Both the position numbers and the translations under genes were made by a program. A model generated the notes under the pieces. It was not told the origin of the DNA. It ran no database searches and saw only the letters and a program-made list of their open reading frames with translations. Positions 3,613 through 37,918 of a stretch of DNA of 64,000 nt are shown one piece after another. The stretch's first letter is position 1, and every line of letters starts with the position of its first letter. This DNA comes from Ignavibacteriales bacterium (lineage in GTDB: Bacteria; Bacteroidota; Ignavibacteria; Ignavibacteriales; Ignavibacteriaceae): contig CP065001.1 of assembly GCA_016700155.1 (NCBI GenBank), positions 2,746,659-2,810,658 of the forward strand, given 5' to 3'.

Positions 3613-5067
3613 CTATTTACCGCCACGTGAAAAAAACATAGTTGGAATAGTTTGAAGTATCAATTGTAAATCAAACCAGGGCGACATATTATTTATGTAG
3701 TACAGATCCAGTACTACAGAATCTTTAAATGATACTGAACTGCGACCCCAAACCTGCCATACACCGGTACATCCGGGAATCACACTTACTCTTCGCTTTT
3801 GCCATTCGTCATAATTTTCATATTCGTAAGGTAAACATGGTCGCGGACCGACAAGACTCATATCGCCTTTTACTACGTTAAACAACTGAGGCAGTTCATC
3901 GAGTGAAGTCTTACGTATAAATTTTCCAATCCAGGTTATTCTGTTTGTGTTAATAATCTTTGAACCCTCGGCTGCAGAGTCGCCATTTTTCATAAACTCT
4001 AACATCTTCTTCATCCGTTCCTCGTCTTCGCCTTTACACACTGTCATAGAACGGAATTTATAAAACTTAAATGGCTTTCCATTTCTTCCTATACGTGTTT
4101 GAGAAAAGAAAACAGGTCCTGCTGAAGTTGTTTTGATAATCAGTGTAAGCATAATGAAAAGCGGGGAAAGAATTATCAAACCAATAATTGAAGCGAGAAT
4201 ATCACTCGCCCTTTTCATACCAAGTGTCAAACTATTATTATAATGCGGTGCTACATCAAGAACAGGAATATCCGCGTACTTTTCAGTTGAAACCTTGCGT
4301 GCAACAATGTCAAACATTTCTGAGGTAAGCCGAACTGTGACGTTAAGAGTTTTACAAAGGTCAAGTGTTTCTAGTAATTTGTCATAACCATCATTATCAA
4401 TTGCGACTAAAATCTCATCGATATTGTGCTCTTTTATAATTTCTCTTATTTCACTTATTCTTCCAAGAACCTTTTTGCCGCTTACAATTTCTTCTGCAAC
4501 TTCTTTATCATCATCAACAAAACCTATGATTTCCAAACCTATCGGATTTTCAAATAATAATTTTGTTGCTAATAACTTGCCGGCTTTTCCATCACCAATG
4601 ATTACAACATTCCTTTTAAACTGGTTGTTCTTTAACCTGATATACAAACCGCGAAGCAATTCGACGCGTACCAGATAAAGGAATGGAAGAGCAATTAGTA
4701 AAAATGTAAAAATGATTAATCTTGAATCAATTATGTTAGATGATTTGATAAGAAAAGAAACAAGAACAATATTTAATGCACCATAGTAAAGTGCTTTTAT
4801 TATTCCGGTAAAGTGTGAAGCTCTTGTAAGTATAACATTTATTCGGTAAAGACTGTTGAACTGAAAGATAAAAAGAAAAATGAATGATAAGAGCAGGCAA
4901 ATAAACAAGATTGGTTGTGAGACACTTAAGAAATCAACGAAAGAAAGATGTTCATCCATCCTTAGTAGATAAATCGAAATTACAAAAGAAAGAAAGATGA
5001 CGATAACATCCGCAATACTAAAAAAGTATTTATACTTAGGCGTTTTTTTCATGTTGATTATCTGCAT
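3613..5067 (-). CDS. Polyprenyl-phosphate sugar-1-phosphate transferase (WbaP/EpsB-type initiating phosphoglycosyltransferase)
   Basis: Five N-terminal TM helices and a central CoA-binding-like region. The C-terminal 'bacterial sugar transferase' signature reads 'KRASDI..SPLF..IK..SAGPVFFSQTRIGRNGKPFKFYKFRSM'. Confidence 0.8.
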   Translation of the reverse strand: MQIINMKKTPKYKYFFSIADVIVIFLSFVISIYLLRMDEHLSFVDFLSVSQPILFICLLLSFIFLFIFQFNSLYRINVILTRASHFTGIIKALYYGALNIVLVSFLIKSSNIIDSRLIIFTFLLIALPFLYLVRVELLRGLYIRLKNNQFKRNVVIIGDGKAGKLLATKLLFENPIGLEIIGFVDDDKEVAEEIVSGKKVLGRISEIREIIKEHNIDEILVAIDNDGYDKLLETLDLCKTLNVTVRLTSEMFDIVARKVSTEKYADIPVLDVAPHYNNSLTLGMKRASDILASIIGLIILSPLFIMLTLIIKTTSAGPVFFSQTRIGRNGKPFKFYKFRSMTVCKGEDEERMKKMLEFMKNGDSAAEGSKIINTNRITWIGKFIRKTSLDELPQLFNVVKGDMSLVGPRPCLPYEYENYDEWQKRRVSVIPGCTGVWQVWGRSSVSFKDSVVLDLYYINNMSPWFDLQLILQTIPTMFFSRGGK

Positions 5068-5644
5068 AGTTATTGTCTATTCACTTTAATTAAGAGCAAA
5101 AGATGTTGATTTGATTAAGACTAAAACTATGCCACACCAAAAGCATAACTGGCTGCGAATTAAACTAAAATTTATTTTAAATGTCAGTTCCATATTGAGA
5201 TTAGTTTCTTAAAAGAATCATTATATGACACGATTTTGTAACATTTTGTTAACTTTTTTTATATCAAATTAAAACTTTGAAGAAGAACAAAAATCCAAAA
5301 CTATAACATGACACTCATCGGATCATAACACAACAATCAGCATTCTCACTACGGAAACATCAACCAATCATTTTCTTTTATTTTTTTTGCGATGACTTCT
5401 AACTTGCCCACGCAAATTTAGAAAAGTTTTCTGAAATTAACTTATCATTTCAGTGTTAACGCAAAAAAAAAGTATCATTAATAAATTATTAAATCAAGCT
5501 TCCAATCGGACTTTCGATTTATACATGCATTTTTTGAATGTAGTAATTATGTGTACAATCAATACAGATATAAACTTGATTCTTTAAACCTCTTCGGTTA
5601 CGTTTAACGCATCATTTTTACAAAATTTTATTCAAGGCACTAAC

Positions 5645-6142
5645 ATGGCACAAAACCATTCCTTTGATATAGTATCAGAAATTGACCTGCAGGAAGCAGA
5701 TAATGCAGTTAACCAGGCTATCAAAGAAATACAACAGCGTTATGATTTAAAGGATTCTCTAACTGAAATAGAACTCAACAAAAAAGACAAACTCATAAAT
5801 ATTAATACCAAAGATGACTATTCTCTGAAAGCAAGTATTGATATACTTCAGACAAAATTTATTCGCAGAGGAATTTCCATCAAAGCACTTAAACTCGAAG
5901 AACCTGAAACCGCTGCTGGCGGAAGAATAAAACAAAGAATAACTCTTGTCAGCGGTATCTCAAAAGAAAACGCAAAACTGATCACCAAAATGATCAAAGA
6001 TTCAAAACTAAAAGTCAACGCACAAATTCAAGATGAACAGGTTCGCGTTCAAGCTCCAAAAATCGATGACCTTCAAGCTGTAATAAAACTTGTCAAAGAA
6101 GCTGAACTGAATTTTCCTACTCAGTTTGTAAACATGAAATAA
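5645..6142 (+). CDS. yajQ: YajQ-family (UPF0234) nucleotide / cyclic-di-GMP-binding protein
   Basis: The 165-aa length and the N-terminus 'MAQNHSFDIVSEIDLQEADNAVNQA' match the YajQ family. Confidence 0.75.
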   Translation: MAQNHSFDIVSEIDLQEADNAVNQAIKEIQQRYDLKDSLTEIELNKKDKLININTKDDYSLKASIDILQTKFIRRGISIKALKLEEPETAAGGRIKQRITLVSGISKENAKLITKMIKDSKLKVNAQIQDEQVRVQAPKIDDLQAVIKLVKEAELNFPTQFVNMK

Positions 6143-6450
6143 CTATGTGATCAATTGTCTACTGAAAGAACTTCACAATTCAAATAATTGAATAGCACTT
6201 CTCAGTTTTCAATTTCGCCTGAAAATGAATTCGTAGTATAGAATACATTTAGTGAACATTTGTTCACTACATATTTATTACTTTCCTGATTCAGATGCAA
6301 TAGCCACTCATTATTTATAAGAAATTAATTTTATCCAATATCGATTCGAATTAATCACTCCTGATGAATTTGAGTAAAGTGACGATTTCTAAATTGACTT
6401 ATTGCCAAAGTATTATAAATTTTGTTCTGAAAATATTTCATATAGTTATA

Positions 6451-6645
6451 ATGAGAACCGACGACGAAATGATCTGGAAGTGCCAGTACTGCGGTCGTGA
6501 AAACAGTGTTTGGATCGATTTAACAGTTAATGGAAAACAGGACTTTATAGAAGACTGTAGAATATGCTGCCGCCCCAACAGGGTAATAGTCACTGTTGAT
6601 GTTGATGATAATGTATTTATCGAATCCAGGTTAAGCGACGAATAA
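6451..6645 (+). CDS. Small CPxCG-motif cysteine-rich (zinc-ribbon) protein
   Basis: 'CQYCGRENSVWIDL...IEDCRICCRPNRV' gives a CxxC...CxxCC arrangement typical of the CPXCG small-protein family. The likely ATG is at 6451, inside the longer ORF-track entry 6364..6645. Confidence 0.55.
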   Translation: MRTDDEMIWKCQYCGRENSVWIDLTVNGKQDFIEDCRICCRPNRVIVTVDVDDNVFIESRLSDE

Positions 6646-8199: not shown

Positions 8200-9450
8200 T
8201 TATAATTCATCAAAAAACTGTCTTACTTTTTTCATGACAAGTGAAAATTTGTTTTTACTTTTCGACTTGCTTTTCTTTATCAATATCTGGTAGTCACTTG
8301 ATTTACCGCCCGGTATACCGCGAATCAATCCGGCTACGGTAGCAAACTCAGGACTTTCAATTTCATTTGATAATCCTGTTCCAAGTTCCTGCGGCACACC
8401 AATCCGTGTGGGCAGTCCAAAAACATCTTCGGCAAGTTCCGTGCATCCTTTTAACAAAGAACCACCGCCCGTTAAAACTATTCCTGCTTTAATTTTGTTT
8501 TTGAATCCTGCACTTCGTATTTCATTATCAACTAAACTAAAAAGTTCCCGCATCCTTAAACTTATTATTTGAGTTAATAGGCTGATAGGAATTTTAGTAT
8601 TACCTCTCGCACCTACGCCTCTTATCAATATGTCTTCTTCTTTTATGATCGCACTTTCAGAAGCATAACCATATTCCTTTTTCAACATTTCTGCTTCATC
8701 AGTCACAACTCCGAGTGACTCACGTATATCATTAGTTACCTGGTTACCGGCAACGCCTATTACTTTTGAGTGTTTGATAGCTTTGTTGTGAAATATTGCA
8801 ATGTCAGTTGTTCCGCCGCCAATATCAATTAAAGCAACACCTAAATCTTTTTCACTCTCTTCAAGAACCGACGAGCTTGATGCAATTGGTTGAAGTATAT
8901 AATCTTTTACTTGAAGTCCCGCGCGCTCAACAGATTTTTTTATATTCTGGATTGCAGGTATAGAAGCAAGGACAATATGATTAGTTGCTTCGAGTCTTGA
9001 ACCTGACATCCCTATCGGGCTTTCAATACCTCCCTGGTGATCTACAGAATATTCTTCAGGAATTATGTGAAGTATTTGTCTGTCTGATGGAATTCTTATC
9101 GTTCTTACATCGGCTTCAAGTCTGTCAAGATCAGCTTTAGTAATTTCTTTATCTTCACTGCTTATGGTTACATAATTTCTGTGACGGATACTTGTTATAT
9201 GTTCACCGGCAACACCAACATTTACAACATTGATATCGAACCCGGCTCTGTTTGATGCGATTGATACTGCGGACTTAATTGCTTCGGCAGTTTTGCCTAT
9301 GTTGGCAACCAATCCTTTGTGCAAGCCTTCGGACGGCGCAACTCCGAATCCAAGAATATCTATTCTGTTTTGCTCATCATTTTTTTCTGCAATGACTGCA
9401 CAAACTTTTGTTGTTCCTAAATCAAGTCCGACCATTATCTCTTTTTTCAT
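8200..9450 (-). CDS. ftsA: Cell division protein FtsA
   Basis: Actin-fold N-terminus 'MVGLDLGTTKVCAVIAE', located between ftsQ and ftsZ. Confidence 0.9.
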   Translation of the reverse strand: MKKEIMVGLDLGTTKVCAVIAEKNDEQNRIDILGFGVAPSEGLHKGLVANIGKTAEAIKSAVSIASNRAGFDINVVNVGVAGEHITSIRHRNYVTISSEDKEITKADLDRLEADVRTIRIPSDRQILHIIPEEYSVDHQGGIESPIGMSGSRLEATNHIVLASIPAIQNIKKSVERAGLQVKDYILQPIASSSSVLEESEKDLGVALIDIGGGTTDIAIFHNKAIKHSKVIGVAGNQVTNDIRESLGVVTDEAEMLKKEYGYASESAIIKEEDILIRGVGARGNTKIPISLLTQIISLRMRELFSLVDNEIRSAGFKNKIKAGIVLTGGGSLLKGCTELAEDVFGLPTRIGVPQELGTGLSNEIESPEFATVAGLIRGIPGGKSSDYQILIKKSKSKSKNKFSLVMKKVRQFFDEL

Positions 9451-10223
9451 TCAACTGATTCCATATTATGTGACGCACCCAGATAAACAGCATTATCAAA
9501 TCTGAAATCCAGATACTCACTAACTGCAACAATATCCTGGTTGAGTGTACTCATAATAGCTTTAAGCGCCAGGATCTTTTTTGCTTCTTTGCCTCTTCCA
9601 AAAATTACAGGACTATTCAAACCACTAAAGGACAGTATAATATCGCCGCCTTTTCTAAGATTTATCTCCGAAAGTTTTTTTACAAGGTTATGATCTGTCA
9701 ACGCTGCTGCATCAATAATTTTAAATGCTTCAATTAATTCTTCAGTTCTTACAATTGCCTGTGGTTTTATTCCTTCATCATATTTCATATTATTTATAAC
9801 CGGCAGATCAACCGCTCTTGTGTTTACAAGTATCGGAAGAAGTTCAAACCTGTTTGTAATAAGAAACGGATCACTCCCGCCAATCAATAATGCTTTGATA
9901 GATTTTTCCTGAACATACGCTTTGATTTTTTTTGTGCCCTCAAATAATACATCCGCATTCTGTATGTACGGATGTTTTTCAAGCCTGTCTTTTACAATTG
10001 CTGGAGTAATATTTTTAAGCCTGCTCAATTCATTCAGTTTTGCAAAAGCGAGATAATCATTTTCTGAAAGAAGATTACAACCGGTTAACTCAATCACTTC
10101 TGCTTTTCCCTCATACTCTTTTTTTGCCGGAGATACTATCAAAATTATTAATAGCAAAATTAATACAGAAAGGATAACTCTTCCTAATTTTGATGAATTT
10201 CTTTTTTCGTTTTTATCTGTCAT
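9447..10223 (-). CDS. ftsQ: Cell division protein FtsQ/DivIB (POTRA domain)
   Basis: Single N-terminal TM helix, about 250 aa, located between murC and ftsA. Confidence 0.7.
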   Translation of the reverse strand: MTDKNEKRNSSKLGRVILSVLILLLIILIVSPAKKEYEGKAEVIELTGCNLLSENDYLAFAKLNELSRLKNITPAIVKDRLEKHPYIQNADVLFEGTKKIKAYVQEKSIKALLIGGSDPFLITNRFELLPILVNTRAVDLPVINNMKYDEGIKPQAIVRTEELIEAFKIIDAAALTDHNLVKKLSEINLRKGGDIILSFSGLNSPVIFGRGKEAKKILALKAIMSTLNQDIVAVSEYLDFRFDNAVYLGASHNMESVE

Positions 10224-30992: not shown

Positions 30993-32996
30993 ATGGGAGA
31001 AGTCATGGAAAATGAACCCGCCGTTGTACAAGTTTCATTTCTTATAGTCGCAATAATAATTGCGGCATTCACATTACTGCTGATAATATTTAAATCACTA
31101 AAGAGCATTGGTCCTACCGAAATCGGTTTGGTGAATAAGAGATTTTCATTTTCTAAACTTGGCGATGATAACCCGATAGCGTTTAATGGTGAAGCAGGAT
31201 ACCAGGAAGAGCTATTAATGCCGGGCTTACGTTTTAAATTCTGGCCGGTATTTTATATTGAAAAACATCCGTGGGTACAGGTGCCCGCAGGTGAAATAGG
31301 TGTTGTTATTGCTCAGGTTGGAAAGCCTCTTCCAATGGGTGCCAAATCCGCGGTGTATAAAAAAGAGTTCGGGAATTTTTTGAATATAAAAGAATTTATT
31401 TCACTCGGCGGACAGAAAGGTGTTCAGCGTCCCGTATTGCCTCCCGGTTCACTTGTACCGATTCACCCGGTTGGATTTTTGGTGATAACCAAAAAACAAG
31501 TTTACGGATTACCCGTTGCACCGGAGATACGTGACCTTGCAATAAAGCGGAACGGAGTTCTTACACCTGAAGCATTTGGTTTAAAACCAAACCAGCTTGA
31601 TGTTGTTTATATCGAACCGCAGAATGATTCAGACGGAAGAGTACAGGATGTTGTTGGAATTGTTACGGTGAACGACGGCGATCCGTTATCATCCGGAGAT
31701 ATTGCAAGCAGGCTTGGCGGGTTTGAGGATATTTCGCAGCTTGAAAACACAGCCAACACATCAGACATGCACCTGATGGAAACGATACTCGGAAATAAAA
31801 ATACAGTTCATAACAACTACCAGGACTTCCAGTCATTCATTGATAACGGCGGAAGAATCGGTCTGCAGCATGATCCATTGCTTTATGGTATGTACAACCT
31901 GAATCCATTCCTTGTTAATGTTGAAATAGCACCGATGCTGGTTATTGAACAAGGTGAAGTAGCAGTAATAAAATCTTATGTCGGTCTGCCTTCACAGGAT
32001 ACTTCCGGAACAGAATTTAAGTTTGGTTCCATTGTAAGACCGGGACACAGAGGTATATGGAGAGAAGCTTTACGCACGGGCAAGTATCCTTTAAACCCTC
32101 ATTGCTACAAAGCTGAAATTGTTCCGACTGCAATATTAAATCTTAACTGGGCAGAAGCTTCGTCACAGGCGCACAATCTTGACCAGAGTCTTAAGCAGAT
32201 TGTCGCAAAGTCGCGTGAAGGATTTGTGTTCAGGATTGATCTGCAGGTGCAGATACATATTCCGGATACACAGGCATCAAAAGTTATTTCGATGGTCGGT
32301 TCGGTGAGAAATCTTGTTAATGAAGTTTTACAGGCGGCAGTGGGAAATCACTTCCGTGATAAACTTCAGTCAATGCCGGCTATTTCGTTTATCGAAAGAA
32401 GAAATGAAATACAAACCGCGGCAACAGAATATATTGAAGCAAAGCTAAGAGATTATGTTGTTGAAACACGCGGCGTGTATATACAGGATGTTATTCTTCC
32501 TGAAGAGTTAGTGATGGTCCTTACACAAAGGGAAATTGCCAACCAGGAAATACAAACGTATAAGAAAAAAGAAGAAGCACAGCAGCAGAGGATATCAACT
32601 GAAAAAGCAAAAGGTACGGCAGATATGCAGGCGGAACTTGCAAAGTCCGCTGTTAATGTTGATATAAAAAAGAATGAAGCGGCGCAGGTAAAGATCCAGG
32701 CTGAAGCTTATCAATATAAAAAAGAAGCTGAGGGTCGCGGTGATTCCTTCTATGTAAATGAAACCGGTAGAGCAAAAGGCGCGGAGATTGAAGCTGTGGG
32801 ACTTGCAAGAGCAAAAGCCGCAGAGGAATTGCGCAAAGCTGTCGGTGAGCAAGGAACGACTCTCGTTAACGTAATTGACGCTGTAATGAAAGGTGATAAA
32901 AAGATAATGCCCGATATACTTGTTGCAGGCGGCGGCACCGGCGGCTCACTCGACGGACTTGCAGCAACGTTAATGAAATTTTTACAGACGAAGTAA
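30993..32996 (+). CDS. Flotillin-like SPFH/Band-7 domain membrane protein
   Basis: N-terminal TM helix and an SPFH domain, followed by a long Ala/Glu/Lys/Gln-rich coiled-coil 'flotillin' tail. Confidence 0.7.
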   Translation: MGEVMENEPAVVQVSFLIVAIIIAAFTLLLIIFKSLKSIGPTEIGLVNKRFSFSKLGDDNPIAFNGEAGYQEELLMPGLRFKFWPVFYIEKHPWVQVPAGEIGVVIAQVGKPLPMGAKSAVYKKEFGNFLNIKEFISLGGQKGVQRPVLPPGSLVPIHPVGFLVITKKQVYGLPVAPEIRDLAIKRNGVLTPEAFGLKPNQLDVVYIEPQNDSDGRVQDVVGIVTVNDGDPLSSGDIASRLGGFEDISQLENTANTSDMHLMETILGNKNTVHNNYQDFQSFIDNGGRIGLQHDPLLYGMYNLNPFLVNVEIAPMLVIEQGEVAVIKSYVGLPSQDTSGTEFKFGSIVRPGHRGIWREALRTGKYPLNPHCYKAEIVPTAILNLNWAEASSQAHNLDQSLKQIVAKSREGFVFRIDLQVQIHIPDTQASKVISMVGSVRNLVNEVLQAAVGNHFRDKLQSMPAISFIERRNEIQTAATEYIEAKLRDYVVETRGVYIQDVILPEELVMVLTQREIANQEIQTYKKKEEAQQQRISTEKAKGTADMQAELAKSAVNVDIKKNEAAQVKIQAEAYQYKKEAEGRGDSFYVNETGRAKGAEIEAVGLARAKAAEELRKAVGEQGTTLVNVIDAVMKGDKKIMPDILVAGGGTGGSLDGLAATLMKFLQTK

Positions 32997-33368
32997 GAAC
33001 ACTTAACATATCGATTCCCTCAGAGCAATTCCGTTTTGAGGGAATAGATTTTACTGATGATGGATATTGATGCTGGATACTGGATACTGGATGCTTGCTC
33101 TCTGATGCCGGATAATTCCTAAATCACAAATCGTTGATCTTCATTCGTTAATCATTCCTAAGTAATCCTATTCGTCTTTACCTCTGTATTCTGCTGCGTA
33201 ATAGTACACTGAACCGCATTCAATCAACAATTCTTTATGATGATTATGATTTTGACAGATAAACCCACAAAAAAACTACTGACTATTGTTTGAGTTCTTC
33301 TGTTTGAACTATTTGTCTATTTATCAGCTACAGGTGGAATCGTTAATCATATATGATAATGGTTCAGT

Positions 33369-33655
33369 TTGAGTGCATTTCTCATCACGTTTAGCATATT
33401 CCCGTTCACATTGAGTACATTCCCGTTCTCGTTTAGTACATTTCTGTTCACGTTAAGTACATTTCTGTTCACGTTGAGTACATTTCTGTTCACGTTTAAT
33501 ACATCCCGATTCACATTAAGTACATTTCAGTTCACATTAAGTACATTTCAGTTCACATTAAGTACACTTCCGTTCAAGTTAAGTACATTTCTATTCACGT
33601 TAAGTACATTTCCGTTCACATTAAGTACATTCCTGTTCACGTTTAGTACATTCCT
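33369..33655. repeat. Tandem array of about 13.7 copies of a 21-bp unit (consensus ttaagtacatttctgttcacg)
   Basis: Copies were read directly from the sequence. Because the 21-nt period is a multiple of three, an artefactual 106-aa ORF (FTLSTFL heptads, TTG start) runs through the array. Confidence 0.9.
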
Positions 33656-33705
33656 AAGAGAATTTTATTTGTTTTTGTTAAATAAATGAGGAAAAAGGTT
33701 GAGTT

Positions 33706-34101
33706 ATGTTAAAGTTTAATTTCAAGTCTGTGTTCGCTGCACGCGGGATTCAGAGTCCAACAGGGTTTTTAAGAAGGGCTGGGTTTTCTCCGCATACTGC
33801 TTCTTATATAGCAACGGGTAAGGTTGAGAAGTTGAATTTAAAGTTGTTAGAGAGGTTGTGCATTTTACTTAATTGCACTCCGCACGATTTGCTTGAGTGG
33901 GTTCCGGACACTAAGCTGGCTGACCCAGGCAGGTTTGAGTTGAGCAAGTTGGCTGGTGAGAGGAAAGTACATTCGCTGCAGGATGATTTGAGCGAACTGA
34001 CGCTGGGGAAGGTGGAGGAGGTGAAGAGGTTTATTGAGGAGAAGAGGAAAGAAACAACCTCACCCCCGCCCCCTCTCCTTGGTAAGGAGAGGGGTGAGTG
34101 A
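33706..34101 (+). CDS. XRE/Cro-C1-type helix-turn-helix DNA-binding protein
   Basis: '…ATGKVEKLNLKLLERLCILLNCTPHDLLEW' is an HTH_26-like motif. The last ~15 codons ('TTSPPPPLLGKERGE') are encoded by a GC-rich hairpin, so the true C-terminus may be altered. Confidence 0.65.
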   Translation: MLKFNFKSVFAARGIQSPTGFLRRAGFSPHTASYIATGKVEKLNLKLLERLCILLNCTPHDLLEWVPDTKLADPGRFELSKLAGERKVHSLQDDLSELTLGKVEEVKRFIEEKRKETTSPPPPLLGKERGE

Positions 34102-34204
34102 TGAGAAGATTTTTTTATTTAAATTTACGGCGGTAATTGTTGTTCACCGGGACGCCTTGAACAACATCTGCAGAATTACCGACCCCCAGCCCGGTGACGT
34201 TCCT

Positions 34205-34231
34205 GCCCGGCGTCCCGGGCGTTTTTATTTT
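34205..34231 (+). terminator. Rho-independent terminator (GCCCGG-cgtc-CCGGGC plus TTTTTATTTT)
   Basis: A 6-bp GC stem with a T-tract closes a roughly 130-nt GC-rich, hairpin-dense segment (34060-34235) downstream of the HTH gene. Confidence 0.65.
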
Positions 34232-34451
34232 AAATATTGAAAGTACTTATGAATTAATATAAGTTGGAATTGATTTTATACGCCCCTTTAGAATCCTTTA
34301 AATCCCGGGGCAGTGCTTTGAGGCAGTTGTACAGGTTTGGCTTGTATGTGGAAAGCGGATCGGGAGAAAAAATAGTTAAGAGTTTAAAATTATGAGTTAT
34401 GAATTGAAGGACAATTGGAACATATATCCACCTAAGGCGGACAAGTATGCA

Positions 34452-34527: not shown

Positions 34528-35397
34528 ATGCAAGAAGAAAAAATTAAAAAAGGTTTTACGATAAACCAAAAATGGATATTCGCAATCGTATTCAATATCC
34601 TTTTATTGTTGATTGGATACAAAATAGTATTTGCAGATTATCTTATTGATTTAACAAAATTTACATTTTCAGATTTTCTTGCACTATTTCTAGCGCTTTT
34701 CTCAATTGCTATTTCAGTAGCCTTCTATTTTAAAGCAACAGATTCTAGCAGTCGCTTTTATGATAATACATATAAATTCACAAAAGACATTGCAGAATTA
34801 CTGGTTAAAATCGAAAGTAGTTTTGGGGAAAGATTAAAACATCTTGATGAGGGATATACAAGTATTAGGGATAAGTTTGATAAAATACCAAGTTCGACTA
34901 TTACTAAAGAAAAGGTTCAAACTCAAGAAGAGTTAGATGAGGTAAAAAAAGAATTTGAAAAGAAATTGAAAGAGAAAGAGACATTATTAAATGATACTCT
35001 ACAAAAAGCACATTCAAATGAAAAGGATAGAAAGTTTATAATAAATCAACTTAACAAAAAAGAAGTTGAGCTACAGCTTGAGAAAGAGAAAGTTGAATTA
35101 TTAGAAGAAAAATTGATGAGTTATAATAATTTGGAAAGAGAAAGAAGCAGAAAGTTTATTCCACCATCAACGAAAATGTTATGGATGCACTCGATTTTAA
35201 TCCCCTTAGGAGAAAAATTTATTAAAAATGCTTCTTATACTGAATTAAATAAAAAATTTCAAGAAAATTTAAAAAACTTTTCAGAGAAAGCACTTCTAGA
35301 TGTATACAGATATGGAATGATGGATAAAGATAAAAATTTAACCGAAGAAGGTTTTCATTATTTAAAAGAACTAGCAAATAATACTGGCGTAATATAA
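34528..35397 (+). CDS. Hypothetical membrane protein: two N-terminal TM helices and a long cytoplasmic coiled coil
   Basis: Hydrophobic segments at about aa 15-35 and 48-68, then a K/E-rich heptad region ('LEKEKVELLEEKL'). No catalytic motif was recognised. Confidence 0.5.
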   Translation: MQEEKIKKGFTINQKWIFAIVFNILLLLIGYKIVFADYLIDLTKFTFSDFLALFLALFSIAISVAFYFKATDSSSRFYDNTYKFTKDIAELLVKIESSFGERLKHLDEGYTSIRDKFDKIPSSTITKEKVQTQEELDEVKKEFEKKLKEKETLLNDTLQKAHSNEKDRKFIINQLNKKEVELQLEKEKVELLEEKLMSYNNLERERSRKFIPPSTKMLWMHSILIPLGEKFIKNASYTELNKKFQENLKNFSEKALLDVYRYGMMDKDKNLTEEGFHYLKELANNTGVI

Positions 35398-35460
35398 CAA
35401 GTGCTTCAACCCGACAGCGTTTTCGCATTTGGTTTTTTTATAATTTTAGCGTTTAGTGCT

Positions 35461-35504
35461 CCGTTTCGGGTAACTTGTTCAAAGTGTTCTTACTAAATTA
35501 ATTT
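35461..35504 (+). promoter_or_regulatory. Copy 2 of the conserved island intergenic motif (…gtttcgggtaACTTGTTCAAAGTgTTCTTactAAATTAAttt)
   Basis: Shares the 'ttcgggt…acttgttcaaagt…tcttta.t.aattaa' core with copy 3. A perfect 13-bp palindrome follows at 35509..35546. Confidence 0.5.
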
Positions 35505-35508
35505 ACTT

Positions 35509-35546
35509 GCAAACCGTGCTTGCAAAGAAAGATAAGCACGGTTTGC
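35509..35546. repeat. Perfect 13-bp inverted repeat (GCAAACCGTGCTT … AAGCACGGTTTGC) with a 12-nt loop
   Basis: Read directly. It lies in the intergenic region between island genes 34528 and 35640. Confidence 0.85.
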
Positions 35547-35639
35547 TAAATCATCGGCAGTTGTAGTTTTATTTGGCAGTCTTGTTCTGGGCTGCGGGTT
35601 AAGCACAAAGCCGTTAGCAAGCTTAAAGAGCATATATAA

Positions 35640-36335
35640 ATGGAAACTATAATTGCAGTTACAATAGCAGTATTTGGTTGGTTGACAAATCATTTCCTTA
35701 CTTTGAGAGCCCAAAGGAAATCCTTTATGGATCATTTGATCAATAATGCAAGAATAGAAATATGTAATGGAATCCGTGACTATATAGATTGGTTGAATAA
35801 ACTTGTTCAACATAATGCTACAATAAGCTTAATTATTGATTTCCCCGGTCAAATTGATAAACTTGAAAAGCCCTATAAATTTTATATTATCGAAATTAGA
35901 AAAACACTTAAAGAAGTATTTCTTGATCCAAGATTTATAACATTACTAAGTGAATATGAAACACTATTTCCTGAAACAAAACAAATAAACTCATATATAC
36001 ATAGAAAGCATATTGCATTATACATAAATATTGAAAGTGCAATTATGTTTGAAAACGAAAATGAGATTGACAAAAATAATTTTTTAAAGGCCATAAAAAA
36101 ATTAGATTTTAATCTTGTTGGAGCTCAACAAGCAGCAGTTAGAGATTTATTAATTGTTTTACAAAACTTAACCTTAGGAAAAATTAAAAAGTATAAAAAA
36201 GAATTTTCTGCATATCCAATGACAAAGCATCCAAGAATATTGTTGGATAAAAATCGGAATATCAAAATAGTTCAATATGGCGAAAAAGATTATCCAATTA
36301 ATGCTGAATTAGATAAATTATTAGAAAATAAATAG
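35640..36335 (+). CDS. Hypothetical protein with an N-terminal TM anchor
   Basis: 'ETIIAVTIAVFGWLTNHFL' hydrophobic helix followed by a roughly 200-aa soluble domain with no known motif. Confidence 0.45.
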   Translation: METIIAVTIAVFGWLTNHFLTLRAQRKSFMDHLINNARIEICNGIRDYIDWLNKLVQHNATISLIIDFPGQIDKLEKPYKFYIIEIRKTLKEVFLDPRFITLLSEYETLFPETKQINSYIHRKHIALYINIESAIMFENENEIDKNNFLKAIKKLDFNLVGAQQAAVRDLLIVLQNLTLGKIKKYKKEFSAYPMTKHPRILLDKNRNIKIVQYGEKDYPINAELDKLLENK

Positions 36336-36389
36336 CTTGCTAACCTGTTGCTCAACGCCGACCGCTTCGCTTTAGCGGTGGTTTTCAAG

Positions 36390-36447
36390 TTTTCGGGTTG
36401 GTTCTTTTTAGCTGGTTACTTGTTCAAAGTTCTTTAGTTAATTAACC
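36390..36447 (+). promoter_or_regulatory. Copy 3 of the conserved island intergenic motif (ttttcgggt…ttACTTGTTCAAAGTTCTTTAgtTAATTAAcc), preceded by the ACCGC…GCGGT palindrome at 36361-36379
   Basis: Aligned by eye to copies 1 and 2. It lies 95 nt upstream of the 36542 CDS. Confidence 0.5.
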
Positions 36448-36541
36448 GTTTTTTTAATTTTAATTGTGGTGCTTTTCGGCTGCTTTCAAGTTATGGGCGG
36501 CGCGTTAGCAGCCACGCCGTTATAAATAAAAGGATTTGTAA

Positions 36542-37918
36542 ATGGAGTTTAAATATCCTAAGGACTTAATAAAAATTTTAAAAGAAAGATGGTTTAATTT
36601 TCAAAAAACGTTAGATACACCTTCGAAGAAGTTTAAAAAACAAAAGGATAAAGATTTTCCTAATGATAGAAATTTAAAAACGATATTGAATGTCATTTAC
36701 CATGCGTCATTTTTAACCGAGGAAAGTCGAAGGATTGCTTATAGAATAGGTTATGTGTCACCAGAAAAATGTGAACAAAAAATATCTGATATTAATATGA
36801 TTAGTGAGCCAATAAAATTATTAATTCCAGTTCCATTCACAGTTCAAGAGATATTAAAAATAGCACCTTCTGTTAATCCAAATCAGTCTCTAGTATTAAT
36901 TTCTGAAGGGGATAAAATTCAAACTAACTTAGAAAATAGTGAATTGTATATATGGGGAATACTTGATTTAGGTTCTGAATGGTGGGAAGTTGTCTCTGGT
37001 TTATCATCTGCTGCGATGTGTCCGCCAAATATTTTGACTGTAAGTTCCACTTCACCTGGAAATATTACGGTCACTACAATTGGTTCTGTATTGTTTCGGC
37101 TTTCAGCTGGTAAAATCTTGGGAACACCTTTAGAAGATTTAAGTTTGGGCTTAATTGGTGGATTTTTAGATAATAGCGCGAAGGCATTATATAGTGATTC
37201 GGTAAAAAGAATTAAAGTGGAAAAATATGATGAAAGAGAGGATTCAGATAAATACCCATACCAGACTTATTATCAAACATTCAACAGTATTCTGAATTTT
37301 GCAAAAGATAAATTACATGGAGCCACATTTATCGTAATTCCAGACGAAATAAATTACAATGATACTCGTTTAACAGATCGAATTAATATAAAATATATTT
37401 TCGATAAAGATATCATATGGGATAAGTTAATAGACTTATGTGAAGCCAATTATTTTTATTACAAGACATTATTTTATGATAAATTCAAAATGATTCTTGA
37501 TAAAAGGAAAGCATCACCGAAAGAATTAAAGGATCTAATTAAATGGGAAAATTCCAAACAGCAGCTTGAAAAAAAAATAATTGATATTGAAAAATTTATT
37601 GCTCAGTTATCTTGTGTTGATGGCGCTGTTGTTCTTACATCTAAATTAAGAATAATTGGTTATGGAGGTGAAATACTAGCTCAATCTTCTAGTTTGACCT
37701 CAATAAAATCTGCAAATGATCCGGATGCCAAATCTTATATAGAAGTAGATATAAATAATTTTGGAACTCGACATCGTTCAGCATTCAGAATGTGTTCAAG
37801 TTTTGATAATTGTGTCGCTTTTGTAATTTCCCAAGATGGAGGTATCAAGGCAGTTAAACGAAATGGACCCAATTTAATTTTGTGGAATAATGTTAATCTT
37901 GGAGAGACTAGTATTTAG
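36542..37918 (+). CDS. Diadenylate-cyclase (DAC/DisA_N)-like domain protein with an uncharacterised ~250-aa N-terminal domain
   Basis: The C-terminal half carries the three DAC hallmark motifs. They read 'HGATFIVIPDE' (cf. RHGALIVIE), 'DGAVVLTSKLRIIGYGG' (cf. HDGAVIxxxxRIxAAGC) and 'GTRHRSAF…VAFVISQDGG' (cf. GTRHRAA…VSEETG). An insertion of about 80 aa separates the first two motifs. The N-terminal region has no recognisable motif. Confidence 0.6.
   Translation: MEFKYPKDLIKILKERWFNFQKTLDTPSKKFKKQKDKDFPNDRNLKTILNVIYHASFLTEESRRIAYRIGYVSPEKCEQKISDINMISEPIKLLIPVPFTVQEILKIAPSVNPNQSLVLISEGDKIQTNLENSELYIWGILDLGSEWWEVVSGLSSAAMCPPNILTVSSTSPGNITVTTIGSVLFRLSAGKILGTPLEDLSLGLIGGFLDNSAKALYSDSVKRIKVEKYDEREDSDKYPYQTYYQTFNSILNFAKDKLHGATFIVIPDEINYNDTRLTDRINIKYIFDKDIIWDKLIDLCEANYFYYKTLFYDKFKMILDKRKASPKELKDLIKWENSKQQLEKKIIDIEKFIAQLSCVDGAVVLTSKLRIIGYGGEILAQSSSLTSIKSANDPDAKSYIEVDINNFGTRHRSAFRMCSSFDNCVAFVISQDGGIKAVKRNGPNLILWNNVNLGETSI

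Follow-up and report, generated by a model that had tools for sequence, protein, structure and literature searches.

What purpose does a long run of 21-bp repeats serve directly upstream of a small helix-turn-helix (HTH) gene in a bacterial chromosome? Such an arrangement is found in an Ignavibacteriales genome within the window, the whole 64,000-nucleotide stretch of DNA analysed here, whose 4.6-Mb source contig provides a chromosomal context. The original prediction, made from the letters of the window, had offered several answers, including a binding-site array, plasmid or phage iterons, and a contingency locus. We followed these up computationally in the window and in homologous loci, which are referred to below by L numbers.

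A single array of 21-bp direct repeats

The array and the elements upstream of it are as follows.

33014..33045, + strand: terminator-like hairpin of the upstream SPFH/Band-7 gene (terminator scan)
33055..33097, + strand: cluster of short 7/14-nt repeats of the TGCTGGATAC type (Tandem Repeats Finder)
33330..33350, + strand: conserved leader motif AGGTGGAATCGTT, about 30 nt 5' of the first unit (alignment of the window with the paralogues L001 and L101)
33369..33655, no strand assigned: 21-bp direct-repeat array of 13 full units and one partial unit, with the consensus TTAAGTACATTTCTGTTCACG and the core AGTACATT; putative phased sites for the adjacent HTH protein
33369..33689, + strand: 'FTLSTFL' open reading frame (ORF) of 106 aa with a TTG start (ORF list), judged to be spurious

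In Tandem Repeats Finder, the interval 33372-33652 emerged as one array with a score of 324, made up of 13.4 copies at a period of 21 that match at 81% and contain no indels; it was far stronger than any other repeat in the 64-kb window. The predicted 14-copy tandem repeat upstream of the HTH gene was thereby borne out, as 13 full units and one partial unit. With the unit register set to 33369 + 21n and substitutions counted against TTAAGTACATTTCTGTTCACG, the full units differ from the consensus at 0-7 positions. The predicted range of 1-4 substitutions per copy describes most units well (0-4) but was slightly optimistic, as units 2 and 7 carry 6 and 7 substitutions. What remains of the 14th unit is TTTAGTACATTCCT alone. 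The units follow each other head to tail at a constant start-to-start distance of 21 without any spacers, in agreement with the prediction that this is not a CRISPR array, and no palindromic half-sites were seen in them by eye. A search for similar sites had also been proposed; across the window, the 17-mer core AGTACATTTCTGTTCAC with up to three mismatches occurs 11 times, always within the array, against 0.35 occurrences expected in shuffles.

The hairpin at 33014..33045, which has upstream equivalents in L006 and L101, appears to shield the array against read-through transcription. The small duplicated motif predicted upstream of the array is present as the TGGATAC-type repeat at 33055-33097. 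This 7/14-nt cluster marks the left edge of the block common to the window and its paralogous copy, and the motif recurs at L001 338-394. The window's module adjoins a low-GC stretch of unknown genes.

The downstream gene and its predicted product

The following features lie between the array and the 3' end of the transcript.

33656..33705, + strand: putative promoter and leader of the HTH gene (consensus matches only)
33664-33671, + strand: candidate -7 box TTTATTTG, one mismatch from the Bacteroidetes TAnnTTTG, at -42 from the ATG
33682-33687, + strand: ATAAAT, candidate promoter or leader element (from sequence)
33688-33698, + strand: purine-rich candidate ribosome-binding site (from sequence)
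33706..34101, + strand: gene for a small predicted Xre/Cro-C1 (HTH_26) DNA-binding protein of 131 aa, 50 nt 3' of the array (Pfam, alignment, AF2, Foldseek)
34070..34094, + strand: REP-like hairpin CCCCTCTCC-N7-GGAGAGGGG, joined to the ORF at its 3' end and recurring after the gene in L001, L101 and L003
34129..34231, + strand: predicted compound terminator of the HTH gene, made of a long hairpin (34129-34183) followed by a GC hairpin (34189-34221) and a T-run (terminator scan)

The HTH protein matched Pfam HTH_26 with E = 1.6e-12 and 47.9 bits (gathering cut-off 22). Its AF2 model reached pLDDT >90 at residues 1-65 and 45-72 in the C-terminal region, and Foldseek retrieved 3bs3, CylR2, SinR, VanU and the N-terminal domain of Stl2, so that the gene product of the window can be modelled as a bona fide DNA-binding fold. 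The closest solved folds, CylR2, SinR and VanU, share the five-helix HTH_26 with flanking beta-strands in the N-terminal 65 residues (Foldseek TM ~0.73-0.77 on the target). These regulators, however, act as symmetric dimers on one or few inverted-repeat operators, and they have neither a 10-unit direct-repeat array nor the conserved C-terminal helix of the present family. The PDB matches 8q86, 8rc5 and 8qe9 (26-30 chains) were considered as a lead to filament formation and rejected, as they represent SaPI2 Stl with phage recombinases and match by the generic HTH only (E ~0.1). The protein length typical of the family is ~117 aa; the last 14 codons of the window copy run through the REP-like hairpin.

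The stretch 33656..33705 is conserved in L001, L086, L087 and L101. In homologous loci, exact TAnnTTTG is enriched between the array and its gene at positions -60 to -31 relative to the ATG, with a cluster at -31 to -49. The compound terminator folds with z = -3.4 and has equivalents in L086 and L087, and the terminator scan found no terminator in the interval between array and gene. The HTH transcript thus appears to be monocistronic and to be ended by its own predicted terminator.

Array and gene form a conserved two-part module

For a survey, we took 82 loci encoding HTH homologues from several phyla and determined the best autocorrelation lag in the 350 nt upstream of the gene. This region was periodic at 21 or 42 bp in 72 of the 82 loci (lag 21 in 44, lag 42 in 28), whereas the control region downstream of the HTH gene showed no lag preference. 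Lag 20 was best in 2 loci, rare period variants of 20 and 41 bp occur, and about 10 of the 82 homologues have no detectable array. Although the unit sequences diverge beyond recognition among loci, the period stays at two helical turns (21 = 2 x 10.5 bp). Autocorrelation of the information content within units gave no signal for a half-unit sub-periodicity of 10.5 bp. Most arrays comprise 9-12 units (median 10), and the median distance from their end to the ATG is 50 nt; the median consensus frequency of the units is 0.69 across arrays. In a Bacteroidota group, the array reaches to 6-12 nt from the ATG with nearly invariant proximal units, and these units must therefore overlap the promoter or leader. 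Conserved blocks start exactly at the first unit, and the block conserved in Bacteroidota is not flanked by convincing terminal inverted repeats or target duplications.

The module is found alone in chromosomes of Ignavibacteria, Bacteroidota and Acidobacteria; cultured carriers include Chitinophaga pinensis, Aquimarina sediminis and Rubrolithibacter danxiaensis. Clustered at 50% identity, the family falls into at least 657 protein clusters, and nearly all members examined have an array. These comparisons showed that array and HTH gene make up a conserved two-part module across phyla, consisting of about ten phased 21-bp repeats and a small Xre-type gene. That period, size and position are strictly kept while the sequence drifts freely clearly marks out a protein-DNA machine. 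The odd repeat of a single metagenome-assembled genome has thus turned out to belong to a large, uncharacterised family. We found no earlier description of array and HTH gene as a module in the open-access literature, and as far as this literature shows, it is previously undescribed.

No recurrent partner was identified by Pfam among the 72 first-downstream genes, which contributed at most 2 members per family and are mostly housekeeping genes. In PADLOC, no defence model drew more than 2 members from these 72 genes, hence no link to defence islands, and the neighbour genes in the window itself matched neither PADLOC nor NCBIfam. Homologous modules adjoin unrelated, often housekeeping, genes, and no ParA, ParM, TubZ, Rep, integrase or partition gene is conserved near them. 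The number of unit-like sites outside the array, in the window or in the flanks of related loci, was not above chance. The description of the gene as an island's HTH regulator is therefore not sustained, given its apparently monocistronic transcript with its own terminator, its unrelated neighbours and the lack of excess extra sites. The module appears from these comparisons to be self-contained and autonomous, being inherited, duplicated and probably also transferred as one piece.

Unit cores follow the recognition helix and are conserved

Unit similarity tracks the HTH region (residues 16-40) when the rest of the protein is controlled for (partial Mantel r = 0.345, p = 0.0005). The rest of the HTH protein also correlates with unit similarity (r = 0.23), and shared descent confounds the co-variation of unit and protein. 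Particular recognition helices go with particular cores: the group NFATRI/V has the core AAACGA in 4/8 cases against 0/62 of the others, and the group TAHNLL has GTTTTAA in 10/13 against 1/57. Such associations showed co-variation of the unit cores with the predicted recognition helix.

In 10 orthologous arrays, 60/77 core columns are invariant as opposed to 59/119 non-core columns (p = 9e-5). Identity in these arrays amounts to 0.924 in the core and 0.819 outside it, compared with 0.875 at the third codon positions of the gene. The alignments showed a pattern of purifying selection on the unit cores.

A cooperative operator array as the proposed mechanism

The reading that we favour, and regard as probable with some reserve, is that of a phased operator array, which the adjacent HTH protein would bind cooperatively on one DNA face and which would overlap the protein's own promoter, allowing autoregulation. 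About 14 asymmetric sites, one per 21 bp, would be recognised by the product of the downstream gene, a 117-aa-type Xre/CylR2-like HTH protein. Since the sites recur every two helical turns, all of them would lie on the same face of the duplex. A single HTH domain would occupy each unit at its core of ~7-8 bp, which reads AGTACATT in the window. The protomers could be held together by a flexible linker and an amphipathic C-terminal helix, which would render the binding cooperative and lead to an extended nucleoprotein filament of ~250-300 bp. Because the last unit abuts or overlaps the putative HTH gene promoter, filling of the array may feed back on HTH synthesis, most simply as autorepression. 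We infer physical binding, C-terminal oligomerisation, the sign of regulation and any roles beyond autoregulation. The earlier suggestion of a binding-site array beside the gene of a DNA-binding protein was thus the right kind of idea, in the form of predicted sites.

Several observations speak against the operator model. The units are asymmetric direct repeats, while for most Xre/CylR2 proteins the target is an inverted repeat, occupied by a symmetric dimer. Oligomerisation is assigned to the C-terminal region, the part modelled at low confidence (pLDDT 45-72). The missing 10.5-bp sub-periodicity and the roughly 10 of 82 homologues that have no array also count against it, and autoregulation by itself leaves the need for ~10 sites and the maintenance of the module unexplained. 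The promoter assignments on which the model draws are consensus matches only.

By analogy, the predicted operator array resembles StbA/stbS, ParR/parC and Cox/Apl. R388 StbA is a small protein of two domains, an N-terminal HTH and a C-terminal one without which activity is incomplete; its targets are ten helix-phased direct repeats in its own promoter, where it acts as an autorepressor and forms a higher-order complex (bioRxiv 10.1101/2022.04.29.490116). A small HTH protein and about ten helix-phased direct repeats at its own promoter are common to both, with binding being predicted in our case. However, StbA is PadR-like and the present family Xre, and the stbS repeats are 9 bp long with an 11-bp period in two sets of five, as opposed to a single 21-bp run. 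StbA/stbS is also plasmid-borne, in an operon with stbB and stbC and with extra operators at other promoters, whereas the present family is chromosomal and apparently monocistronic, has no excess sites nearby and is absent from the plasmids searched.

Partition systems such as ParR/parC (R1, pSK41), the omega heptads and TubR/tubC likewise have helix-phased tandem direct repeats 5' of the operon or gene of the binding protein, and their cooperative binding coats the array and autoregulates, as we propose here. The pSK41 centromere repeats are 20 bp long, close to the unit length here. The pSK41 ParR-centromere complex is superhelical (PMC3074162). In contrast to the present Xre HTH family, the partition proteins are mostly of the ribbon-helix-helix type (TubR is a winged helix), and they always occur with an NTPase (ParM, ParA or TubZ) on plasmids or phages, neither of which was found for the present module. 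Cox of P2 and Apl of 186 are small HTH-type proteins that form head-to-tail oligomers on direct repeats on one face and repress the promoters overlapped by their arrays (PMC3936717; PMC7498355). Their sites, about 5-7 in number, are separated by one helical turn rather than two, and they act with integrase at the att sites of temperate phages, whereas no integrase or phage context is conserved here.

If the predicted operators are real, the module would provide dozens of natural orthogonal pairs of an HTH protein and a 21-bp operator. They could be used to study how Xre proteins read asymmetric direct repeats and form cooperative filaments, and would be candidate synthetic-biology parts for Bacteroidota.

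Alternative readings

We see a modest chance that array and HTH protein constitute a new class of autonomous chromosomal element, a phased nucleoprotein body with a structural or selfish payoff and no regulation of neighbouring genes. This would be an NTPase-free centromere-like or anchoring site, a domain boundary or a boundary of transcription or replication, or a self-propagating cassette among the FCB group and Acidobacteria. Rather unlikely, in our estimate, is a centromere-like or chromosome-organising element in which the HTH-coated array serves as a structural landmark and not primarily as a gene switch, for instance as a site for segregation or positioning that needs no NTPase (as with StbA/stbS), as an insulator of topology or transcription, as a roadblock to replication or as a bridge joining the two or three arrays of one genome. 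Ten or more phased sites go far beyond the need of autoregulation and are a hallmark of centromere arrays, and StbA/stbS, an HTH protein with direct repeats 5' of its own gene, works without a plasmid-encoded NTPase. Several genomes carry 2-3 copies of the module, often with the same core (the window with L001 and L101; L006 with L011; L016 with L018), one array survives beside a degraded HTH gene although intact paralogues exist, and the upstream gene is usually co-oriented. Against a structural landmark stand the absence of ParA, ParM or TubZ, or of any conserved partner, near the modules, their location in multi-megabase chromosomes with segregation systems of their own, and the lack of family members on the plasmids searched. 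A landmark of this kind would also need the HTH protein to bind the array, and so extends the operator model rather than replacing it. If a role as boundary, anchor or roadblock were true, these phyla would gain their first described example of a dedicated chromosomal element of this kind.

We consider it improbable that the array works without the adjacent HTH protein, as curved or UP-element-like AT-rich DNA or as sites of another host protein, the HTH gene being merely regulated. The arrays are indeed AT-rich (median 72%), helix-phased and directly 5' of the putative promoter, and the ~10 homologues mentioned above do without one. A shared host factor or plain curvature would, however, predict similar units everywhere, whereas the cores differ sharply by lineage, following the recognition helix of the adjacent protein. 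Moreover, the window's own unit is not A-tract-rich, and selection appears to act on a specific 7-bp core and not on composition.

Transcription of the array to act as RNA, whether as a ToxI-like antitoxin, as a sponge for protein or as an extended 5' UTR with a regulatory function in the HTH mRNA, is quite improbable. Tandem repeats directly 5' of a gene are the layout of type III toxin-antitoxin loci and are seen here as well. In the clade of the window, a conserved leader motif stands 5' of the array, and in the Bacteroidota group the final units extend to the start codon, so that at least these are probably transcribed. In ToxIN, the repeats of ~36 nt are transcribed, structured and processed, and a terminator and the endoRNase toxin follow. 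Here, by contrast, the repeats measure 21 bp and are poor in structure, no terminator separates array and gene, and the gene product is a predicted DNA-binding HTH protein rather than an endoribonuclease toxin. On either strand, folding of the array is weaker than that of shuffled controls (z = +2.4 and +2.0), and neither the window nor three homologous loci matched Rfam, on which grounds a structured RNA was rejected. PADLOC likewise gave no match, and the fold is HTH_26/CylR2-like instead of ToxN/AbiQ/CptN/TenpN. The strict 21-bp period (2 x 10.5) with its rare 20/41-bp variants points to a constraint on duplex DNA, and a promoter-like predicted -7 box lies between array and gene.

The predicted contingency locus, in which frequent slippage would alter the copy number and thereby switch or tune HTH expression within a population, retains a very slim chance. 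L003 and L005, which have identical HTH proteins, differ by exactly one 21-bp unit, so that indels come as whole units, and close relatives of the window have ~10-14 units. This is nevertheless the sole whole-unit indel seen between two strains; L087-L089, also with an identical protein, show no change in length. Units that are just 60-85% alike (81% in the window) are a poor substrate for slippage, the ten orthologous arrays from different species have 9-11 units in colinear alignment without unit indels, and copy number stays mostly within 9-12 across phyla. For the window's own orthologue, no exact protein match was found, and the metagenome pattern scans made for strain comparison returned no match.

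It is scarcely credible that the repeats are the iterons of a plasmid or phage replicon that has integrated, and that the HTH protein serves as its initiator or copy-number controller. Plasmid iterons (R6K, P1, F, pSC101, RK2) are tandem direct repeats of 17-22 bp beside the gene of their binding protein, which is autoregulated via the same sites, and the 13.4 copies of 21 bp beside a gene for a DNA-binding protein fit this classical picture, as might the low-GC surroundings. Rep proteins, however, are double winged-helix initiators of 30-40 kDa, whereas the present product is a 13-kDa Xre HTH protein (117-131 aa) with a match to Pfam HTH_26 only and none to NCBIfam Rep models. Iterons form part of an origin that also contains DnaA boxes and an AT-rich unwinding element; the present loci are chromosomal, beside housekeeping genes, with no conserved Rep, integrase or partition gene nearby. 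A tblastn search of 72,556 plasmids found no family member, phages gave weak HTH-only matches, none of family type, and 2.9 million viral contigs contained no family-type match.

Finally, we practically dismiss the coding of a heptad-repeat protein by the 106-aa 'FTLSTFL' ORF, which had already been called spurious: one frame is open across the window's array and the variable unit positions 3, 12 and 21 are third codon positions, but the ORF has a TTG start with neither a ribosome-binding site nor a Pfam match, its frame is interrupted by TAA/TAG in the closest paralogue (L001), stops close all three forward frames in 63/71 homologous arrays and all reverse frames in likewise 63/71, and array periods of 20 and 41 occur. 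The frames of the 71 arrays and of the closest paralogue showed the array to be, by this comparison, non-coding, and the ORF exists because the 21-nt period happens to be stop-free in one frame. For annotation, this means that ORFs called over such arrays are artefacts.

Conservation of a 21-bp tandem array upstream of a small HTH gene

The array upstream of the HTH gene is the single outstanding tandem repeat of the window according to TRF, which verified the 21-bp period at 33372-33652 (13.4 copies, 81% matches, 0 indels, score 324). The original prediction had described fourteen copies with 1-4 substitutions each. In its register, counted from 33369 in steps of 21, we found 13 complete units plus a 14th that is truncated, with 0-7 substitutions per unit relative to TTAAGTACATTTCTGTTCACG. 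The 17-nt core, allowing up to three mismatches, occurred 11 times as opposed to 0.35 expected, exclusively within the array. The HTH ORF (33706-34101, 131 aa) begins 50 nt 3' of the array and encodes a Cro/C1-type HTH_26 domain (E = 1.6e-12). As a 106-aa TTG-start ORF across the array was present as well, the observation was confirmed.

A profile search with the HTH protein retrieved 657 clusters (50% identity) at E <= 1e-10, of which the best 150 were nearly all full-length matches, mostly of 110-125 aa. There is no family-specific model in NCBIfam or PADLOC. In the AF2 model, residues 1-65 form a CylR2/SinR/VanU-like HTH domain (pLDDT >90), followed by a low-confidence linker and an amphipathic C-terminal helix (100-117). 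Homologues are about 117 aa long, and the window protein bears an extra 14-residue tail, which is a translated REP-like hairpin fused to the 3' end of the gene. In several Ignavibacteria loci this hairpin, CCCCTCTCC-N7-GGAGAGGGG, lies 3' of the HTH gene:

Window, 34070-34094
L001 (closest paralogue), 1268-1296
L101 (third copy in the same organism), 3925-3950
L003 (homologous locus), ~6388-6412

In the window and in L101 the hairpin was absorbed into the HTH ORF, so that the odd C-terminal tail TSPPPPLLGKERGE is an annotation artefact.

A 21-bp array occupied the equivalent position in each of the first three homologous loci retrieved (3/3), with units related to those of the window in L001 and L002 and unrelated in L003. 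In a survey limited to a single genome for each species, 80 loci were recovered, which belong to Ignavibacteria, many Bacteroidota families, Pyrinomonadaceae and other Acidobacteria, one Anaerolinea, and one Sericytochromatia. Autocorrelation of the 350 nt preceding the start codon (best lag within 5-45, n = 82 loci) gave a best lag of 21 in 44/82 loci, 42 in 28/82, and 20 in two, and the identical test downstream of the gene revealed no preferred lag. Recognisable units number 10 per array in the median, mostly 9-12, and the median distance from the array end to the ATG is 50 nt. The unit consensus sequences are almost wholly different between lineages. Conservation therefore concerns the geometry and not the unit sequence: a period equal to two turns of B-DNA, a length of ~200-290 bp, and the position. 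L003 and L005 encode an identical HTH protein and their arrays differ by exactly one 21-bp unit; insertion or deletion of whole units keeps the helical phase. Between the same two loci, the array region (L003 5440-6000) has ~6% substitutions, mostly outside a TTTAGTGAG core.

The array is real, non-coding, and functional, and constitutes one half of a widespread cis-trans module that is apparently undescribed; a full-text search of the open-access literature found no prior description of one.

Co-variation of the repeat units with the HTH protein

We compared units by the best rotation and orientation of their PWMs. Unit similarity correlated with the distance between HTH regions (residues 16-40) when the rest of the protein was controlled for (partial Mantel r = 0.345, p = 0.0005), whereas the converse correlation with the rest of the protein was weaker (r = 0.23), with shared descent contributing to both. 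The recognition helix NFATRI/V accompanied the core AAACGA in 4/8 cases as opposed to 0/62 elsewhere, and the helix TAHNLL the core GTTTTAA in 10/13 as opposed to 1/57. The clade of the window has the common core RTACATT, and drift is seen in the remaining half of the unit (GTTCAC, TTGTAA, TTGCAA). Among ten orthologous arrays, 60/77 core columns were invariant compared with 59/119 of the rest (p = 9e-5), and identity was higher in the core (0.924) than at third codon positions of the gene (0.875) and lowest outside the core (0.819). The conserved columns indicate that each 21-bp unit contains one selected site of ~7 bp, matching in size the footprint of one HTH domain. The comparisons show that this specific family of small HTH proteins is associated with a conserved, helically phased, non-coding array whose asymmetric sites have selected cores and co-vary with the recognition helix.

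A distant Bacteroidota homologue (L085 4748-4957, 30% identity) has the unit AGTGATGAAATGTACT, the reverse complement of a near-copy of the window unit (AGTACATTTCATCACT versus AGTACATTTCTGTTCAC). Their recognition helices differ, and the likeness is probably due to chance; if real, it would imply that arrays can occur in inverted orientation with respect to the gene.

Autonomy of the module

The module is autonomous. It lies between two terminators in the window, and its relatives have an equivalent layout:

33014-33045, terminator of the upstream SPFH gene
34129-34231, compound terminator of the HTH gene (z = -3.4)

The first downstream genes of 72 loci, which include alanyl-tRNA synthetase, Dus, citrate synthase, and RNA polymerase beta', represent 102 Pfam families, each seen at most twice, and no defence model in PADLOC was matched by more than two of them. 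For the window protein, even the gene that follows its closest orthologue (87% identity) is unrelated. PWM scans of the 64-kb window and of ±5-kb flanks found extra unit-like sites at the chance level (0.13 per 10 kb, real and null). With unrelated neighbours and no further sites beyond chance, the proposed role as the island's regulator is unsupported. A group of ten Bacteroidota species shares a block, 87-95% identical at the nucleotide level, whose start coincides exactly with the first unit. Its end lies directly behind the stop codon (L046) or behind a separate ~400-nt multi-copy repeat; its flanks are unrelated, and one MAG carries two copies. The organism of the window has three copies of the module. 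In the third (L101 3500-3965), the array of about ten units is intact and the HTH gene lacks its ATG and ~65 codons of its interior; the array may be an orphan that stays occupied by the paralogous proteins, with their common AGTACATT core.

Promoter geometry and a proposed model of autoregulation

In the interval that separates array and gene, exact matches to the Bacteroidetes -7 motif TAnnTTTG are enriched at 31-49 nt from the ATG, and the -60 to -31 bin contains 11 of them. The window has a putative -7 box, TTTATTTG, at -42 with one mismatch, and the surrounding stretch is conserved in the paralogues. In the Bacteroidota group, the array runs to 6-12 nt from the ATG, and the two proximal units and the leader are almost invariant. 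These positions, with the promoter assigned from the consensus, suggest that the array abuts or overlaps the core promoter, which is the geometry of autoregulation by occupancy. We propose that each core would be bound by one HTH domain, that protomers joined via the flexible linker and the C-terminal helix would bind cooperatively along one DNA face over ~250 bp, and that the protein would thereby feed back on its own promoter. The 42-bp super-period of 28 loci may reflect a dimeric binding unit over two neighbouring units, as in the dimer across stbDR pairs proposed for StbA (bioRxiv 10.1101/2022.04.29.490116), or, alternatively, two-unit duplications.

We consider this cooperative operator-array model reasonably probable, a main weakness being that it offers no convincing reason for ten sites regulating one small gene. 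A primarily structural role of the array, centromere- or insulator-like, would build on the identical HTH-array binding and seems unlikely to us; the remaining alternatives have small probabilities.

Functionally, the closest known systems are helically phased direct-repeat arrays coated by small autoregulating DNA-binding proteins. The omega and TubR centromeres are such arrays. Others are StbA/stbS of R388, an NTPase-free system of an HTH protein and ten repeats inside its promoter (bioRxiv 10.1101/2022.04.29.490116), the ParR/parC centromere array (PMC3074162), and the oligomerising phage proteins Cox and Apl on direct-repeat arrays (PMC3936717; PMC7498355). The present family differs in several respects: it has an Xre fold and a spacing of two helical turns instead of one, and its module is monocistronic and chromosomal, without an NTPase, integrase, or Rep partner. 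In contrast to the compared plasmid and phage systems, no family members were found on plasmids, and matches in phage records and viral contigs were weak and restricted to the generic HTH region.

Rejected and unsupported readings

The original prediction had regarded the TTG-start ORF as spurious, and this reading holds. The ORF has no protein family match, its frame reads ...TTG TAA in the closest paralogue, stops occur in all three forward frames of 63/71 arrays and in all three reverse frames of 63/71, and periods of 20 and 41 also exist among homologous loci, which together rule out a coding sequence. A structured RNA is contradicted by the array of the window, which folds more weakly than dinucleotide shuffles on the two strands (z = +2.4 and +2.0), and by a search of Rfam with 0 matches. 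The suggested iteron origin is very improbable, with neither a Rep partner nor any family member found on plasmids. A contingency locus, also suggested, is unlikely, as near-identical units prone to slippage are lacking. The array likewise lacks defining features of a type III toxin-antitoxin locus and of CRISPR, already discounted originally.

Other elements around the modules

In a group of Bacteroidota MAGs, a multi-copy repeat of ~350-400 nt lies directly 3' of the HTH gene and recurs in the same loci without it, and several contigs stop within it. It had no Rfam match and is a candidate MITE or ncRNA. Homologous copies occur in L049-L056 and L066; those in L053 are:

5379-5760
1825-2160
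6444-6591
9421-9560
10041-10213

A conserved element (TCCCGGGGCAGTGCTTTGAGGCAGTTGTACAGGTTTGGCTTGTATGTGG...) follows all three paralogous copies in the organism of the window:

Window, 34303-34365
L001, 1389-1417
L101, 4049-4097

It could form a 60-nt hairpin weakly better than shuffles (z = -1.4) and had no Rfam match; both short-read contigs stop inside it, suggesting a multi-copy sequence. Clusters of 7-nt repeats (TGGATAC/TGGATGC type) adjoin the module in the window (33055-33097), L001 (338-394), and L002 (6356-6400). They lie upstream in the window and its paralogue, and in L002 a GATGGTT-type run directly follows the stop codon; they may represent a REP-like sequence specific to the lineage or belong to the duplicated block. 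Downstream of the HTH gene of the closest orthologue (L086 700-880), a GC-rich 60-nt unit (GTCACGGAATGGACTCCCGAAGGGACAGGCGTGGCTGCCAAGTAAGTGTGACTGCCAAGTGACT) is repeated in tandem about three times; L001 has a single copy (1210-1260).

The low-GC stretch at 34528-37918 (0.30 versus ~0.36) contains a 289-aa coiled-coil-like ORF and a 231-aa ORF, both without family match, and encodes a 458-aa protein that combines a DACNV sensor domain with a DAC (diadenylate-cyclase/DisA_N) domain. It had 0 PADLOC matches, looks like an accessory or conflict-system island, and is unlinked to the HTH module in other genomes. Directly upstream of the module, the 667-aa SPFH/Band-7 gene (30993-32996) has a GC content of 0.42-0.43, above its surroundings.
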